Shown in pieces: positions 21,001-27,000 of a stretch of DNA of 64,000 nucleotides. The stretch covers positions 672,001 to 736,000 of the forward strand of contig CBDHDG010000004.1 in NCBI GenBank assembly GCA_965261595.1, read 5' to 3'. The first letter of the stretch is position 1. Each line of letters starts with the position of its first letter. The position numbers were made by a program. This stretch comes from a bacterium. Lineage in GTDB: Bacteria; UBA8248; JACPRG01; G963555815.

Positions 21001-24000
21001 GATCCGAAGAAGGGACGTTTGGTGAATCGAATTCGATGGATGGCCCTGGGGATTGTGCTCCCCGCGATGTTCTGGACTTTTTCCGCGTGGGGTTACGAGG
21101 TCGTCGAGGTAAAGGACGGCGGCGCGGTGAGCGGAACAATCACATTCGAGGGACAGGCCCCGGCGCCGAAAGAATTGCGCGTCACCAAAACGAAAATGTC
21201 TGCGGGGTGAAGCCCTTATTTTCCCAGGAGTTCGTCGTCTCCAAGAAGGGGGCGCTCAAGAACGTCGTGATTTCGCTGGTCGGCGTTGAAAAGGGCAAGG
21301 CCTTCAAGAAGAAATCCGCCCGGCTGATTCAGCGGCAGTGCATGTTCGTCCCGCACGTCGCCCTGATCCCGGTCGGAAAGCGGTTCAAACTCGTCAACGA
21401 GGACAAGCTCCTCCACAACCTCCGGACCCTATCGAAAGAGAACGTCGCCCTGAACATCGCCCACCCGAAGTTCAAAAAGACCCTCCGGATCAAGAAGAAG
21501 TTCAAGAAACCCGAAATCATGCGGATCAAATGCGACATCCATTCCTGGATGGACGGGTGGATCATCGCCATCGCTCACCCCTACTACGTCGTATCCAAAA
21601 AGTCCGGCCGGTTCACCCTGAAGAACGTCCCCCCGGGCGCATACAAGCTCCGGGCCTGGCACGAGATCCTGGGCGAACAGGTCCAAACCGTCACGGTCCC
21701 CGCCGGCGGAGAGGTGAAGGCCGATTTCACTTTCAAGAAATAGCCTCCTCGGCATGAGCCCCCTGCCGCCCTCCGGCGCCCGAGCGCGCTCCGCGAGCCG
21801 TTCGCGCCCCTCCGCCCAAGGGCGATGCCCCCGCCTTGGGCGGGCCTGTCGCGCCCTCCTCGCGGGATTCCCCGCTCCGTCTTCCGCCCACCACGTCAAG
21901 ATGCGGTCCGGCCCCTTCGGCGGAATGGTCAGCTCCATTTCCATCCACCCCTCGGACCCGCGAAGGATTTACGCGGGGGTCTTCGGCACTGGTGTCTTCG
22001 GCGCGGGGGTCTACCGCTCGGACGACGGCGGGACCCTTTGGACCGCGAAATCCAGGGGCCTGACGGACACCGGCGTCTACAGCGTCCTCGTCCTCCCGGC
22101 AGGCGGAACCGTCCTGGCGGCCACGAACACCGGGGTTTTCCGGTCCGTGGACGGGGGTGAATCGTGGAAGCCGTCGAATCGCGGACTCCCCGATACAGGG
22201 GTCCGGATGTTCGCCCCCCTGTCCGAAAGCCACATCCTGGCCGCAACCGGGTCGGGGGTGTTTCGCAGCCGCGCCGGGGGAAAGACCTGGGCGGATGCGT
22301 CCGAAGGGCTCACAAACCAGGACGTCCGATGGCTTACCGTCGAGCCCGACGCGAAGAGAACGATCTTCGCGGCCACCTTCGGGGGCCTTTTCGAGAGCCG
22401 GGACGGCGGACGGACCTGGCGGGAAAAGGGTCTCTCCCTCCCCCCACTGCGCACGGCCATTGTGGCGGCGGGGGGACGGACGGTGATCGCCGGTTCGGCG
22501 AACCGGGGCGCCTTCATCAGCCTGGACGGGGGCGCGACGTTCAAACCCGCGAATGAAGGCCTCCCCAGCCCCTACATCATGGCCCTCGGATTCTCGGCGG
22601 CGGCGGGGGAGGAAGAAGGAGCAGAGGGATCTCCACCCATCTTCCTGGCCGGGACCCTCGGCGGATTGTACGTGAGCCGCAACGGAGGAAGCCGTTGGAA
22701 TTACCTGTCGAGCGACATGACGAACCTGTCCATTACGGCCTTCGCCGTCCATCCGAAGGACCCGAAGATGATTTTCGCCGCCACCGGCGGCCTGATCTTC
22801 CGGACGGCCGATGGAGGCCGCACTTGGACGAACCAGGCGCGCTGGGTGATCCATCATGCGGGGAGATTGAATCCGGCGCGGGGAAAATCCTTCGCCGGCC
22901 GGTGAACGGTTGCGGGACCGCCGGCCTGATCCGTGATTGCGAATGACCGTGGGCGCATGCGCCAAAGGAGAGAAGCTCCATGAAAGGGAGGGAAGTTCCA
23001 TGAAAGGGAGAAACCGGAAGTGGTTGGGCGTTTCCTTGCTGGCCCTGGCGTTTGCCGTCAGCGGGCCGATGGGCTGGACGCAAACGTCCGACGCCGCAAA
23101 GAAGGCCAATCCATGTAACCCATGCGCCGCGAAGAAGGGAAATCCGTGTAATCCGTGCGCGGCCAAGGGAAATCCATGCAATCCCTGCGCGGCGAAGAAG
23201 GCCAATCCGTGCAACCCATGTGCGGCCAAGAAGGCCAACCCATGCAACCCGTGCGGGGTCAAAGCCAAGGCGAATCCGTGCAACCCGTGCGCGGCCGGCG
23301 GCGGCCGGAAGGGCCCCCGGGCCAAGGCCCGGATGATCATCGGGAAGGTGCTCTACGCGAAAGGCAATTACGTGGCGGTCCAGTGGAAGGGCGCGAAAAT
23401 CAACATCGGCGTCCACGCCAAAACGCAGTACTCCCGCGGACCCGCCAAATCCTCCCTCGGCTCGATCAAGCCGGGAGAGCGGATCATCGTTTCGATGATG
23501 GATCGGGGCGGCAAACTGAGCGCCAACTACGTCTACCTGTCCAAGGCCTCGAAGGGCGGAAACCCCTGTAACCCATGCGCGGCCAAAGGGAATCCCTGCA
23601 ACCCGTGTGCGGCCAAGAAGGCCAACCCGTGCAACCCATGCGCCGCCAAAGGAAATCCCTGCAATCCATGCGCGGCGAAGAAGGCCAACCCGTGCAACCC
23701 GTGCGCGGCCAAAAAGTGATTGCGGCTTGTGCCGACGGATTCCGAGCGGGATTCGAAAGAGACGCGTCCAAACGCGGAACACTCGAACTCAAGGGAGGTC
23801 AATCAATGCTTCGATCATGGACGAGGGTCTCGGCGGCCCTCCTCGCAGCGGTGGTGATGACGGCCGGGACGGCCGCAATCGCCTCCGCCCAGAAAAAGAA
23901 GACCATCCCCATGGGGCCCTATTTTCAAACGCTCCAGAAGGATGCGTCCATCGCCGCCGCCATCAAGCGGGGAAAGCGGCAGTTCAACCAACTGGGTTGC

Positions 24001-27000
24001 GCTGGCTGTCATCCGCGCGGGGGCACCATCGGCGGAACCGCCCGGGCGGTCGACGGAAGCCCGGTGCCCGTTCCCATTCCCCAGCTCGTGGGCGCGGCCC
24101 TTCACTACCCGCGCCTATCGATGACGGGGTTCGCGGCGAACATCGGCATCATGAACGACCTCTGAAACACGATCTTTCTCGGCCGTGAGCCGATGGATCC
24201 CAATTCCCAGCAGTACATGGACCTGTACGCCTACGTCGCCTCTCTTACACCGGCGGTCAAAAAGGAGATGCTCCGGTGGGAGAAAGAGCGCCAGGCCCTG
24301 ATGAAGAAAATCATGAGCAAGGGCGGGGGCGGCAAAGGCAACCCCTGCAACCCGTGCGCGGCCAAAGGGAACCCGTGCAATCCTTGCGCGGCCAAGAAGG
24401 CCAATCCGTGCAACCCATGCGCGGGGAAGAAGTAAGAAACGCACGCTGTTTGATATAATTGAAAGGGGGACGGTTGCGAGGCCGTCCCCCTTTCGATTTG
24501 GTTCCGCGAAAAAATTCGGCGCGGATGAACACTGAAGATGGATGGAGAAACGATGAACGCATTCCGGAGACTCTTCGTCGGCGGCATTTTCCTGGCCGTC
24601 GGGTGGGCGGCGTCGCCCGCGATAAGCGCCGAAATCAAGGGCGACCTGGAACAGGGCAAAGACGTCTACGAGGAGATCTGCTTCTCATGCCACGGCGCCA
24701 GAGGGGACGGGAAGGGCCCGAGCTTCCGGAACACGATGCCCTACCCCCAGGTTTTCGCGAATCCCAACTACATGAAGCGCCTGACGCCGCAATACATGTT
24801 CGACGTGGTGAAGTTCGGCAAGCTCGCCGTCATCAAAGGCGAGAAGCAGACCGGGAAGTACGACGTCCTGCCCATGCCCGGGTTCGAGGATTCCCTGGAG
24901 GACGGGGAGATCCGCGGTCTGATCGCCTATGAGAAGTTTCTCCTGACCGGAAAGTGGAACCCACCCAAAGGAAGTGAATTCACGCAAGCGGATATGAAGG
25001 AGTACTTCGACGGGGCCTGCGCCGAGTGCCACGGCCCGAAGGGCAAGGGAAACGGGGACAAGGCGGTCGGAAAGCAGGACCCCGGCAAACCGTTCGTCAG
25101 CGTCGCCCAGCCCGCGCCCGCCGACCAGACCGACCCCCTCCTCATGGCCCGGTTCAACGACGAGTTCATCTTCTGGCTGATCAAGAAAGGCCGCATCGCC
25201 GTCACCGAAGAGAAGAACTTCGACATCATGAAACCCTACGGACACGTCATGAGCGACGAGGAGATCTGGAGCGTCGTGCGGTACGTGTGGGAAACGTATA
25301 TCGAAAAGAAAAAGTGAGGCGGGCTTCTCGGAAAAGAGAAGCGGCCGACCCGTCCGGCGTTCGTTCTTCGAGGCGCGCGGCAATCCTACGGAAGCAGAAT
25401 CGTTCTATCGTACAGGACATACGGCGAAGACATCGCGTGGGCGCGGGCCTTCTCGATCAGTCCGCGCGCCCGGGCGCTCATCCGGCCCTGGAGAAGCGAA
25501 GGGAAGAACGTCGCGCCGTAGTAATCGTCGGGATGGACCTCCACGAAGACGTGGAGGCGCTTCGCCCCCCGGGGGTTGGGCGCGTTGTAGTCGAAGACGC
25601 GGGTCTTCCCGGGGGGGATGCGCGTGTCCGACCGCTCGACCCAGCCGCCTTCGTATTCAAGCCGGCGTTGGATGCGGTCCGCCCGGCGGCTCCCCTCGAT
25701 GGTCTTTCCATTCTCGTCGAGCAGCTCCACCTTGATGAAGACGGCCGGAATCATGTACGTCGGAAACATGTGACCCGCCCCGGTGTTGGTCAGGGTGATT
25801 CGCGCGACGGCCCGGCCCGGAACGGCCTCCTTCCCCCGGGGGACCACAACGCCCAGCGTCACCGCCCGGGCCGTCATCTCCTTGTCGTGAATGCCCCGCC
25901 ACAGGTGCTTGCGCCCCGGCATGTGGCAATCCTGGCACTGAACGCCCAGCTTTGAATACGGCCCTTCTTTCCACTCCACATACGTGTTCTCAATCGGCTT
26001 TCCGTTAACGGCCGCCGACATCGGATGCTGGTGGCACGTCCGGCAAAACTCCGACCGCTCGAAGGCGGTCGTCCGGGTTACGCCTCCGTGGGGCGATTTC
26101 TCCACGCTGGGTCCAAGGGATTTCCCCGCCTTCGGCGGGCCGAACCGCTCGTGCCCCCGCACGTGACAAGCGGCGCAGATCAGCCCCCCCTTCTCCAAAT
26201 CTTTCACGTAGCCCTCGTTCCTGACGACCGTCCCCGACCGCCCGACCCGATAAGGCTGCTGCTCGGCCAGGGGGGCGTGACAACCCACGCAGTCCTCCGC
26301 CCCGGCGGGATTGTCCACCCACTGGCCGACCACGCCCGGGCCCATGGCCTTGGCGTGAAGACTCGTCTTCCAGTCAGCGAGCTGGGCGGGGTGGCAAGCC
26401 CCGCAGGACTGGGGATCGAGCGCGCTTTCCAAGGGAGAGAACCCTTTGGGCGGCTTCCCGTTGGGCGCGAACGGAGATTGCCAGTGCTTGGCGACGAACG
26501 CTTCGATCGCCGGGTCCGGCGACTGGGCCGGGGCCTGGTCCGAAGAGAGCAGGAAGAAACCGGCGCAAGCGACGACGCGAAAAAATGTTTGCCGCATTTT
26601 CAGCGATTGATCCTCTCAGGGAAGACGAAAAGAAAAGACCCGGGAGGATTTTCCTTCCCGGGCCTTCTTTTTATCAGAATCCAGCCGAAATCAACAATCG
26701 ATTGCTACTTCTTGGCCGCGCAAGGATTGCAGGGGTTGGCCTTTTTCGCCGCGCACGGGTTGCAAGGATTGGCCTTCTTCGCAGCGCACGGGTTGCAAGG
26801 ATTGGCCGCCACCTTGGCCGCGCACGGGTTTGCAGGGGTTGGCCTTTTTCGCGGCGCACGGGTTGGCCTTCTTGTGCCAGGCCGCGTCACTCACCCCGGA
26901 TCCCGCGACGAACAGGACCGCGACCGCCGCCACCAGGAAACTACACAACAGTCCCCCGCTCTAGGGTTTTGTTGGACACTCGATTGATCCATGATTCATG

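Follow-up and report, generated by a model that had tools for sequence, protein, structure and literature searches.

The window considered here is a 64,000-nucleotide stretch of a bacterial genome (contig CBDHDG010000004.1, positions 672,001 to 736,000). At 23806-24435 on the forward strand of this window, two gene calls are one gene that encodes a secreted haem protein, referred to below as the Sec-cytochrome. The gene, its internal features and its neighbours are as follows, in window coordinates:

21754..22905, forward: BNR/Sortilin-type beta-propeller protein, start codon uncertain (Pfam Sortilin-Vps10, BNR, PSII_BNR)
23000..23719, forward: secreted NPC-repeat protein (g01622), from its sequence a signal peptide and two NPC blocks (12 motifs, then 10) either side of a ~90-aa central domain
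23806..24435, forward: SoxA/TsdA-like monohaem cytochrome c gene (Sec-cytochrome), 209 aa, from the read-through translation, with a Pfam match across the UGA and continuous homologues
23806..23889, forward: putative signal peptide, residues 1-28, ending AIASA/QKKK, assigned by eye from the sequence
23998..24012, forward: haem c attachment motif CAGCH, residues 65-69, with C65, C68 and H69 invariant (35 and 38 sequences)
24103..24105, forward: His100 codon, invariant within 35 family members and variable in the wider family
24163..24165, forward: UGA read as selenocysteine 120, in a column that matches the ligand Cys of TsdA and SoxA
24173..24197, forward: SECIS-like hairpin, lower stem 24173-24175/24195-24197, upper stem 24179-24183/24189-24193, loop CGUGA at 24184-24188
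24319..24432, forward: C-terminal low-complexity tail, residues 172-209, six NPC motifs (3 x NPCNPC) in translation, predicted disordered
24457..24498, forward: strong terminator- or attenuator-like hairpin, directly after the Sec-cytochrome stop codon and before the dihaem gene
24538..25317, forward: dihaem class I cytochrome c with two CxxCH motifs (Pfam Cytochrome_CBB3, 74 bits; Cytochrom_C, 63.5 bits)
25386..26597, reverse: pentahaem c-type cytochrome with five CxxCH motifs, a weak ExtKL/MccSep relative
26705..26948, reverse: small secreted NPC-repeat peptide, apparently frameshifted, in two overlapping ORFs of different frames

The Sec-cytochrome frame comprises 209 codons once TGA is translated as selenocysteine (Sec, U), and the UGA is codon 120, within the motif IMNDL-U-NTIF. 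With table 11 the frame falls apart: a first piece stops at 24165, and a separate ORF covers 24193-24435. A Shine-Dalgarno-like AGGGAGG lies upstream of the start, and His69 of the CAGCH motif is expected to be the proximal haem ligand. The Pfam Cytochrom_C match (22.4 bits, cut-off 21.3) covers residues 53-147 and thus spans the UGA codon; both the cytochrome domain and the fold extend past it to about residue 150. The structure model has a mean pLDDT of 76.7, and pLDDT falls below 50 from residue 174 onward, in the tail GNPCNPCAAKGNPCNPCAAKKANPCNPCAGKK, where NPC denotes Asn-Pro-Cys. The read-through translation agrees with the preliminary description of a 209-aa secreted monohaem cytochrome with CAGCH and Sec at residue 120, and the Pfam match reported there was reproduced.

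Neighbouring genes and NPC repeats

The surroundings of the Sec-cytochrome gene were compared across 42 related loci from species genomes. The dihaem cytochrome is encoded downstream in 34 of these, conserves Met113-Pro114 and Met231, and is presumed to be the electron partner of the Sec-cytochrome. Its closest solved relative is Kustc0457 (6h5l_B, E 6.8e-14), and TsdB is absent from its PDB matches with E values up to 0.001. The hairpin that precedes it folds at -33.9 kcal/mol (z -5.0), a value equalled by 0 of 200 shuffles, and was not flagged by a consensus terminator scan. The beta-propeller gene is often the upstream neighbour (23/42 loci; NF045728 at 124.9 bits, cut-off 175), and the pentahaem cytochrome gene occurs in 11/42 loci, its product matching NF040886 at 51.6 bits (cut-off 250) and MccSep (9wt8/9wt9) at E 0.002.

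The central domain of g01622 is conserved in 22/42 loci, every time within ORFs of 8-44 NPC motifs. No Pfam or NCBIfam family was found for g01622, and DUF5666 is no more than a lead; the 22 NPC motifs counted previously are confirmed. The place of the NPC protein gene differs among the 22 loci: immediately upstream, ahead of the propeller gene, or after the dihaem gene. The conserved three-gene operon described earlier holds only in part, because gene order varies and the strong hairpin at 24457..24498 intervenes between the cytochrome and dihaem genes; the dihaem neighbour is indeed frequent, but not every locus has the arrangement NPC protein, cytochrome, dihaem cytochrome. NPC repeats are found in cis or in trans in 35/41 loci and are absent from 6/41 within the DNA fetched. 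The apparent frameshift of the small NPC peptide falls at an A-run near 26829-26831. NPC repeats also occur fused to a YHS domain, and a TlpA/Sco-like thioredoxin is encoded near the Sec-cytochrome gene.

Evidence for selenocysteine decoding of codon 120

The decoding of UGA 120 as selenocysteine is well supported. The genome contains the complete Sec machinery (selA, selB, selD and tRNA-Sec): selA and selB are adjacent and each above its cut-off, selD contains a TGA itself, and the tRNA-Sec, whose anticodon is tca, reaches 72 bits. Among the 42 loci, the codon-120 column holds TGA in 27, drawn from several phyla, and Cys in 14, while one locus is cut. The 14 Cys forms constitute a single clade (100/100 support) nested within the Sec forms. 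Conservation stays strong in the same frame beyond the UGA, with F124, G126, P132, S134, Q135, D139, L140, Y143, S146 and L147 invariant in 35 sequences.

The SECIS-like hairpin lies 7-13 nt 3' of the UGA, and 94% of its cells are paired, compared with 26-46.5% for slid partners. At pair 18:30, 13 sequences have UA and 12 have CG, a compensatory C:G/U:A exchange that falls on two synonymous third positions. Furthermore, TGA 120 is unchanged in contigs of two sequencing runs from different studies (X6 and X9), assembled independently. The UGA is also bridged by a 225-nt contig from an RNA library, of which contaminating DNA is a possible source.

The alternative is that the UGA is a true stop, leaving a truncated 119-aa cytochrome and an 80-aa NPC-tailed peptide, or that the locus is pseudogenic or misassembled. 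Gene callers do split the frame here, and assembly defects lie nearby (an FGE-like gene interrupted by TAG, and frameshifts at two A-runs). A search of the protein set with the Sec-cytochrome gave 189 matches, and 116 of the 120 listed are 114-134 aa long; all eight of the short database proteins retrieved end in ...NDL or ...NDM, i.e., at the UGA, so that the earlier observation about such entries holds. A stop is highly improbable in view of the shared TGA column with its nested Cys clade, the continuation of domain and fold to about residue 150, the covarying hairpin, the complete machinery and the TGA in independent assemblies. The Sec-cytochrome is very probably a genuine selenoprotein, and the union of the two calls made in the preliminary description stands.

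The distribution given there was re-examined. A match was again obtained in 33 of the 51 genomes in the phylum-level group, with TGA inside the match in the five genomes named before (G000, G006, G010, G011 and G037) and additionally in G008. Among the species-genome loci the 27 UGA forms hold, but the eight relatives said not to fit the motif carry Cys, as FNDLC, FNDWC or FNDFC. The proposed motif (M/L)ND(L/M)-U/C-xx(V/I)F is too strict: only N117, D118, U/C120 and F124 show no variation in 35 sequences. The NPC-repeat tail, with its six motifs here, ranges from 0 to 31 NPC motifs in relatives, and 13 complete members are without it.

Relationship to SoxA and TsdA and the haem-ligand column

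The preliminary description had placed the predicted fold closest to the TsdA haem-1 domain and SoxA, with Sec at the position of their Cys ligand, and this relation can now be followed at the level of sequence. The family profile finds a wider Cys-containing family at E values down to 4e-28, and hhalign aligns the two families with probability 100 (E 3.6e-40) and their Cys columns matched. All ten wider-family proteins tested pass PF21342 (SoxA-TsdA_cyt-c), and the other PF21342 cytochromes tested are flanked by NPC repeats in 5/5 cases. PF21342 gives no match to the Sec-cytochrome itself at E 0.1 and none across the whole genome at E 0.001. A joint profile of the Sec-cytochrome and wider families reaches SoxA (1h31_A) at 4e-14 and TsdA at 5e-12, and its alignment places the Cys/Sec column at TsdA Cys96 and at SoxA Cys114 and Cys222. 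These profile comparisons show the family to be homologous to SoxA and TsdA, with its Sec column aligned to their ligand-cysteine column, through a link that is transitive. The best direct single-sequence PDB match is 3o5c (E 0.0047), the C-terminal haem domain of a bacterial dihaem cytochrome c peroxidase, with which the Sec-cytochrome has the PxL..G...P and L..Y..SLT blocks in common. Sec120 lies opposite a Met of 3o5c in a weak stretch of an alignment of the two, where the ligand-region score is below significance. The high-potential haem of dihaem peroxidases has a Met ligand in that region, and these enzymes, unlike the Sec-cytochrome, combine two haem domains with peroxidase chemistry.

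The available text of PMC6879331 gives His53/Cys96 as the ligands of TsdA haem 1, and that of PMC4423706 describes an S-thiosulfonate intermediate on the ligand Cys. By the joint-profile alignment, Sec120 is likely to be a haem-iron ligand, giving a His/Sec-ligated c-type haem, since across 38 sequences that include the wider family only the haem motif (C65, C68, H69), G56, G72, P102 and the Cys/Sec column at 120 are invariant and His100 is variable. Met is conserved nowhere, since the candidates M116 and M130 both vary.

His100, previously put forward as a possible sixth ligand, is invariant in 35/35 family members, and the structure model contains no haem. A genuine selenoprotein could therefore have a His69/His100 or five-coordinate haem with Sec120 as a nearby redox-active residue, much as in MccSep, whose chemistry is carried out by a Sec distinct from the Cys haem ligand: U325 is described in the accessible part of 10.1101/2025.11.18.688581 as lying near a His/Cys haem without ligating it. 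Such an arrangement is unlikely here: in the wider family His100 gives way to T, N, S, R, K and other residues, in contrast to the invariant Cys column, His100 aligns with the non-ligands Arg75 of TsdA and Val93 of SoxA while U120 aligns with ligand cysteines, and no further Cys is conserved in the family that could act as ligand. His100 may be a second-sphere residue or an alternative ligand.

Proposed chemistry and comparison with known systems

The Sec-cytochrome is fairly likely to be a monohaem c-type cytochrome that is located in the periplasm, belongs to the cysteine-ligated SoxA/TsdA lineage and has Sec in place of the haem-ligating catalytic Cys, and Sec120 is predicted to be both distal haem ligand and catalytic residue. 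The selenolate of Sec120 would be the sixth ligand of the haem iron, opposite His69. By analogy with TsdA and SoxA, Sec120 would then leave the iron and bind a chalcogen substrate covalently, as an Se-S (or Se-Se) adduct, in a two-electron oxidation. A thiol would resolve this adduct, most plausibly from the Asn-Pro-Cys repeats of the protein's own tail or of the co-encoded NPC-repeat proteins, which would take the role that SoxY has for SoxAX, while the electrons would exit via the adjoining His/Met dihaem cytochrome c. That the NPC repeats are a thiol carrier or acceptor is a tentative suggestion.

The closest known systems are the TsdA haem 1 domain (Allochromatium vinosum; PDB 4wq7, 4v2k) and SoxA of the SoxAX thiosulfate:carrier-protein oxidoreductase (PDB 1h31, 2c1d, 3oa8). 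TsdA has two haems and Cys, whereas the Sec-cytochrome has one haem, Sec and an NPC-repeat tail, and its partner is a separate dihaem cytochrome. Arg82, Arg92 and Ser100 of the TsdA thiosulfate site (mature numbering) have no counterpart in the joint-profile alignment, and a thiosulfate site of the TsdA kind is missing. In the comparison with SoxA, the Sec-cytochrome misses the cut-off of TIGR04484, as does the wider Cys family. No SoxY was found in this genome; SoxY is a folded protein with a single carrier Cys, whereas the carrier proposed here is a low-complexity, multi-Cys repeat.

A His/Sec cytochrome could instead work reductively, with electrons from the dihaem or pentahaem cytochromes reducing polysulfide, tetrathionate, selenite or disulfides, or handle soft metals, with the thiols of the NPC repeats taking up Cu, Hg, As or Se like a sponge. 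The YHS domain fused to NPC repeats is a copper-associated domain, and its fusion, like the nearby TlpA/Sco-like thioredoxin, would suit such roles; metal-transport or resistance genes were not found in the annotated stretch. In the dihaem partner, Met-Pro and Met still occupy the customary ligand positions, a pattern that would suit high-potential electron acceptors and would argue against reduction. TsdA enzymes do work in both directions, according to the available text of PMC6879331, and the pentahaem cytochrome of 11 loci weakly resembles the polysulfide reductase MccSep/ExtKL. The Sec-cytochrome also weakly matches ExtS, part of a selenite/tellurite reduction operon, but both the ExtS and ExtKL matches are far under their cut-offs. 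Taken together, the reductive and soft-metal roles are quite unlikely.

MccSep/ExtKL of Geobacter sulfurreducens, of which a weak relative is encoded beside the Sec-cytochrome gene, is a pentahaem selenoprotein polysulfide reductase with a different fold and belongs to a family unrelated to SoxA. It resembles the Sec-cytochrome in being a c-type cytochrome selenoprotein with chalcogen chemistry, a thiolate-type haem ligand and Sec; as far as the accessible part of 10.1101/2025.11.18.688581 describes it, Cys239 ligates the haem and U325 is separate, whereas in the Sec-cytochrome Sec is at the ligand position itself. P450s carry a b-type haem with Cys (or Sec) as sole protein ligand, in a fold unrelated to the Sec-cytochrome, the haem of which is covalent and c-type with His on the other face. 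A native cytochrome P450 with Sec in place of the canonical Cys axial ligand is nevertheless a comparable natural haem protein, as presented in the available portion of PMC11703216.

The claim that the Sec-cytochrome represents a new selenoprotein family is supported. No NCBIfam model exceeds its cut-off, the sole weak lead being, as noted before, ExtS (19.4 bits against 100), and the selenoprotein table of a 2026 review, with cytochrome entries for ExtKL, the GSU2204 family and an octahaem family, does not include it. The word "cytochrome" is nowhere present in the other selenoprotein papers searched, and the protein is described in no curated family or paper among those searched. The Sec-cytochrome probably provides a natural selenium-ligated c-type haem.

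A probable selenocysteine in a secreted cytochrome c

Under table 11, the frame opened by the ATG at 23806 stops at a TGA (24163-24165), and a second ORF occupies 24193-24435. When TGA is translated as U, the stretch 23806-24435 yields a single 209-aa product, the features of which are as follows.

5' of the ATG: Shine-Dalgarno-like AGGGAGG, by sequence reading
23806-24435 (+): secreted monohaem cytochrome c, read-through translation
Start of the protein: signal peptide, ending at AIASA before QKKK
Residues 65-69: CAGCH, the sole haem motif in the protein
Residue 120: selenocysteine (U120), in the context IMNDL-U-NTIF
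C-terminal part: helical segment after U120, then a tail with six NPC (Asn-Pro-Cys) motifs

The preliminary description had treated two gene calls as one gene, and this reading is borne out by the match of the read-through product to Pfam Cytochrom_C (PF00034), which spans residues 53-147 across the UGA and exceeds its cut-off by a narrow margin (22.4 bits versus 21.3). The match is obtained with the read-through product only, which combines a score above cut-off with a CxxCH motif and is thereby assigned to the class I cytochromes c. No NCBIfam model exceeds its cut-off for the cytochrome; the top match, ExtS (NF040971), reaches 19.4 bits (E 4.8e-4) against a cut-off of 100, as had been reported.

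The genome (completeness 96.7%, contamination 5.6%) contains adjacent selA and selB genes, each above cut-off, and a tRNA-Sec (72 bits; aragorn call tRNA-SeC, anticodon tca). The selD gene (G000:C5:89297-90265, locus L018) is also above cut-off and has an in-frame TGA of its own, indicating that SelD is itself a selenoprotein here. BSepDB places genomes of UBA8248, the label that the preliminary description gives to this lineage, among the most selenoprotein-rich bacteria. A second tRNA-like sequence at 58794-58876 (+) (G000:C4:730794-730876) scores 49.4 bits on the tRNA-Sec model, which has a gathering score of 47; it lies on a different contig from the genuine tRNA-Sec and possibly represents a tRNA with a long variable arm.

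The rival reading, that the UGA is a true stop codon, agrees with how the frame ends under table 11 and with the form in which most database entries exist. A search of 5.8 billion proteins returned 189 matches; among the 120 matches listed, 116 are 114-134 aa long, the length expected of a product ending at the UGA, and all eight short entries fetched terminate at ...NDL or ...NDM. On the other side stand three full-length database relatives that carry Cys at the Sec column, as MNDLC or FNDLC, and the codons found at this column in 42 related loci from species genomes (TGA in 27, TGC or TGT in 14, one locus cut by a contig end). Within the host's phylum-level group, a recount agrees with the 33 of 51 genomes previously said to have a match; a TGA lies within the match in six (the window's own genome, G000, and G006, G010, G011, G037 and G008), a TAG in one, and no stop in 26. 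The match in G006 contains "2 TGA, 1 TAA".

Few parts of the cytochrome are as well conserved as the stretch that follows the UGA (UNT[VI]FLGREPMDPNSQEY.DL.AYVASLTP), and F124, G126, P132, S134, Q135, D139, L140, Y143, S146 and L147 show no variation in 35 sequences. The entire 2.4-kb stretch is covered by contigs of two sequencing runs that belong to different studies; these contigs show 4 and 6 differences, none of which affects the TGA. A 225-nt contig from a metatranscriptome library spans the UGA (24090-24313), such libraries being able to contain DNA. The metatranscriptome runs X19 and X20 cover small parts of the stretch only, mostly NPC-repeat DNA that matches other organisms too, and their coverage is not used as a measure of expression level. 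Taken at the level of sequence, the cytochrome gene is very probably a genuine selenoprotein gene. In the closest relative (L030:4349-4942, 77% identity), a second in-frame TGA is present in the tail (...KKLSR-TGA-GGGKGNPCDPC...), past which the NPC repeats carry on in frame; this codon may encode a second Sec, mark the true stop or stem from a recent nonsense mutation.

A SECIS-like hairpin is found 3' of the UGA in 26 Sec-type sequences.

24173-24175/24195-24197 (+): lower stem of the SECIS-like hairpin
24179-24183/24189-24193 (+): upper stem, with the loop CGUGA positioned 19-23 nt past the UGA

The stem positions pair in 94% of cells, compared to 26-46.5% after a shift of the 3' partners by 1-3 columns. 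A single compensatory pair (UA in 13 distinct sequences, CG in 12) connects the third position of a Leu codon (CTC/CTT) with that of a Pro codon (CCG/CCA), so that the coupling links two synonymous sites. The folding energy is unremarkable (z -0.24 for a single sequence, 111 nt around the UGA), and support for the SECIS consequently comes from conservation and covariation rather than from energy. An Rfam scan of 22000-27000 at E values up to 10 gave no match at the hairpin, a result not counted against a SECIS. In two Cys loci, L038:4590-4637 and L042:685-732, a perfect hairpin is kept at the SECIS position (stems ATCGGCG...CGCCGAT and ATCGGC...GCCGAT, respectively).

Relationship to SoxA and TsdA and the role of Sec120

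Direct searches gave weak matches: in the PDB, the cytochrome scores best by sequence against a dihaem cytochrome c peroxidase, in its C-terminal haem domain (E 0.0047). A profile built from 35 full-length family members (A2) was searched over 1.84 billion representatives, identifying 409 proteins at E <=0.001 and 66 at <=1e-10. These matches include a wider family, made up of secreted cytochromes with one or two haems, all of which have Cys at the Sec column, as MNN.C. All ten wider-family proteins tested score 39-90 bits on the Pfam model PF21342 ("SoxA/TsdA cytochrome c domain"), for which the cut-off is 27, and the same ten match NCBIfam SoxA, each below cut-off. With hhalign, the family profile and that of the wider Cys family (A5) align over 103 columns (probability 100, E 3.6e-40) and their Cys columns are in register; the joint profile (A4) matches SoxA (1h31_A, E 4e-14) and TsdA (5e-12). 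PF21342 does not match the cytochrome itself at E 0.1, nor anything in the whole genome at E 0.001, so that the cytochrome is assigned to the SoxA/TsdA lineage through homology that is transitive and significant. The AlphaFold2 model of the cytochrome, which contains no haem, has a mean pLDDT of 76.7 with a disordered tail; a Foldseek search of this model against the PDB gave no match at E <=0.001, with TsdA as the top match at 0.054.

In Cys-ligated c-type haems, a rare kind of catalytic centre found in SoxA and TsdA, the chemistry is performed by the axial ligand itself. In the joint-profile alignments, the Cys/Sec column is aligned with Cys96 of TsdA (numbered from the chain start, in which the haem motif is C49, C52 and H53) and with Cys114 and Cys222 of SoxA, placing Sec120 at the position of the SoxA/TsdA cysteine ligand as the preliminary description had proposed. 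The two SoxA residues are presumably haem ligands, each being the non-CxxCH cysteine of its domain. For TsdA, PMC6879331 names His53 and Cys96 as the axial ligands of haem 1 and states that mutation of Cys96 abolishes activity, and PMC4423706 describes formation of an S-thiosulfonate reaction intermediate on the ligand cysteine (Cys123 in precursor numbering).

Only G56, C65, C68, H69, G72, P102 and C120 are invariant in 38 sequences drawn from both families. The distal-ligand column is thus always occupied by a thiolate-type residue (U/C120), which is Sec in the protein described here instead of Cys. Methionine was rejected as the sixth ligand, as neither M116 (M/L/F) nor M130 (M/T/I/L) is conserved. 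A less likely possibility is that Sec120 lies near a His/His haem without binding the iron and that His100, named as an alternative in the preliminary description, serves as the ligand. His100 is invariant in 35 family members; however, the wider family has T, N, S, R, K and other residues at this position, which is aligned with the non-ligands Arg75 of TsdA and Val93 of SoxA. By homology, Sec120 is probably the residue that ligates the haem iron, forming an Fe-Se bond. Overall, the preliminary observation is confirmed, and sequence comparison both supports and strengthens its interpretation.

Neighbouring genes and NPC repeats

The genes closest to the cytochrome are the following.

23000-23719 (+): secreted NPC protein, upstream, 22 NPC motifs around a central domain of ~90 aa
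24457-24498: hairpin between the cytochrome and dihaem genes
24538-25317 (+): dihaem class I cytochrome c, downstream
21754-22905: BNR/Sortilin-type beta-propeller, upstream
25386-26597 (-): pentahaem cytochrome

The 22 NPC motifs attributed earlier to the upstream protein were recovered by counting in 23000-23719. Conservation of the neighbourhood was surveyed by tblastn of the window proteins against the 42 loci. The dihaem cytochrome gene occurs downstream in 34 loci and the beta-propeller gene upstream in 23. The NPC protein's central domain is present in 22, the pentahaem cytochrome in 11 and a CarboxypepD_reg-like protein in seven. All 22 matches to the NPC-protein domain lie within same-strand ORFs carrying 8-44 NPC motifs. 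NPC repeats are present, on the cytochrome or on a neighbouring protein, in 35 of 41 loci examined, and the fetched DNA contains an NPC protein for eight of the 13 complete cytochromes that have no tail. The hairpin between the cytochrome and dihaem genes is very stable (-33.9 kcal/mol, z -5.0), and the NPC, cytochrome and dihaem genes need not be on one fixed transcript.

The dihaem cytochrome conserves Met113-Pro114 and Met231, a pattern consistent with two haems of the His/Met type. Among solved structures, the dihaem subunit Kustc0457 is closest to it (6h5l_B, E 6.8e-14). Assignment as TsdB or SoxX was rejected on the basis of the PDB profile search, which gives Kustc0457 and CcoP-type cytochromes; TsdBA is absent from the 26 matches at E <=0.001. 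No SoxY was found in the genome.

The NPC-repeat proteins match no Pfam or NCBIfam family. An Atlas search with the NPC protein returned hypothetical proteins only, DUF5666 being a lead with a score of 0.79. The source names within the protein clusters are restricted to "hypothetical protein". The peptide strings NPCAAKNPC, NPCNPCAAK and AKNPCAAKNPCA are absent from the literature searched, in which "NPC repeat" occurs only in unrelated senses. Repeats of the KNPCAA type are found on both sides of separate PF21342 cytochromes (five of five tested, above cut-off), and the pairing of a SoxA-like haem domain with NPC repeats is therefore recurrent. Proteins in which NPC repeats flank a SoxA/TsdA or YHS domain are P0152, P0159, P0160, P0168, P0178 and P0137, the last of which has the repeats ahead of its YHS domain. 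The NPC repeat has the appearance of a reusable module of the periplasm and is covered by no curated family.

Several other features of the region are as follows.

14952-17816 (-): LarC (Ni_insertion), LarB-like (AIRC) and LarE gene set
17924-19234 (+): glutamate dehydrogenase
19279-19884 (+): secreted TlpA-like thioredoxin with a WCPPC motif
20072-20860 (+): secreted FGE-sulfatase-like (SUMF1/PvdO-type) gene, recognized by eye from motifs including RGGSW
~21050-21743 (+): CarboxypepD_reg-like gene
26705-26948 (-): third NPC-repeat gene, a small secreted peptide with a signal peptide and ANPCNPCAAKK-type repeats
26991-28309 (+): IS3-type transposase pair, HTH_Tnp_1 then rve integrase core, directly adjoining the cluster

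The FGE-like gene has an in-frame TAG at 20435-20437, where the relative L060 has Asp. The part past the TAG has matches in 13 of the 42 related loci, and the gene thus belongs to the wider neighbourhood. The CarboxypepD_reg-like gene has an apparent frameshift at an A-run (break near 21187-21196), with the part encoding the signal peptide in the frame of ORF 20737-21210 and the remainder in ORF 21036-21743; a homopolymer error in the assembly is the probable cause. The third NPC-repeat gene is divided between two frames at an AAA run near 26829-26831. For the pentahaem cytochrome, which has no in-frame TGA, the top NCBIfam match is the selenoprotein family ExtKL/MccSep at 51.6 bits against a cut-off of 250. 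The MccSep match (E 0.002) is too weak for functional inference, and this cytochrome was set aside as a functional clue.

Evolution, proposed chemistry and implications

The evolutionary history of the family was examined using a tree of 38 members with five Cys proteins of the wider family as the outgroup, omitting L056, L065 and L066 (cut at contig ends), L068 (cut, and a near-copy of L067) and L071 (no motif). The family is monophyletic (support 98/92), and the 14 Cys forms make up one clade (support 100/100) nested within the Sec forms. This topology, the root of which depends on long outgroup branches, fits a Cys ancestor with a single gain of Sec followed by a single reversion to Cys. 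The hairpins kept in the Cys loci L038 and L042 may be relics of the Sec ancestor, in agreement with the tree.

If the protein works as TsdA and SoxAX do, the Sec ligand would leave the iron and bind a chalcogen substrate covalently during a two-electron oxidation. The resulting Sec adduct would be resolved by a thiol, and the electrons would pass to the dihaem cytochrome. The NPC cysteines, carried both by the disordered tail and by a dedicated protein, stand out as candidate thiols and would take the role of SoxY; this SoxY-like assignment is a tentative one, drawn from analogy. The residues that bind thiosulfate in TsdA, with roles described in PMC4423706, are not conserved: the positions aligned to Arg82, Arg92 and Ser100 (mature numbering; Arg109, Arg119 and Ser127 in precursor numbering) hold M106/T107, M116 and F124, with M/T, M/L/F and F in place of the three TsdA residues. 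As these residues are replaced, the substrate site differs and thiosulfate is not implied. A less likely rival to an oxidative reaction is that the cytochrome acts reductively or in metal handling.

Extending the oxidative reading, a speculative and rather unlikely proposal is that a selenolate-ligated c-type haem forms the catalytic centre of an unrecognised periplasmic chalcogen relay. Here Sec would swing off the iron, capture sulfur or selenium species (as Se-S or Se-Se) and hand the adduct to disordered, multi-site NPC arms analogous to SoxY, while the dihaem cytochrome accepts the electrons. In that case, NPC repeats would represent a new type of carrier module, present on several SoxA-like cytochromes.

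In the selenoprotein table of a 2026 review, "cytochrome" appears only for ExtKL, the GSU2204 family and the octahaem tetrathionate-reductase family (PMC13188914). The word is absent from deep-Sep (PMC12013277), from the preprint "Eight unexpected selenoprotein families" and from the main text of BSepDB. Literature searches for selenocysteine together with SoxA or TsdA returned MccSep work only. A natural Sec haem ligand has precedent, as a native Sec-ligated P450 is reported in PMC11703216; this is the sole natural Sec haem ligand found, and no precedent for a Sec-ligated c-type cytochrome was found in the literature searched.

The family adds to the known selenoproteins one that annotation pipelines now shorten at the UGA. 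Given the history suggested by the tree, it offers a clean case of Sec/Cys exchange at a probable metal ligand. If Sec120 does ligate the iron, the protein would be the first His/Sec c-type cytochrome, so far as the searches show, and the family would provide a ready-made system for examining how a selenolate ligand influences the potential of the haem, the lability of the ligand and the resistance to over-oxidation.
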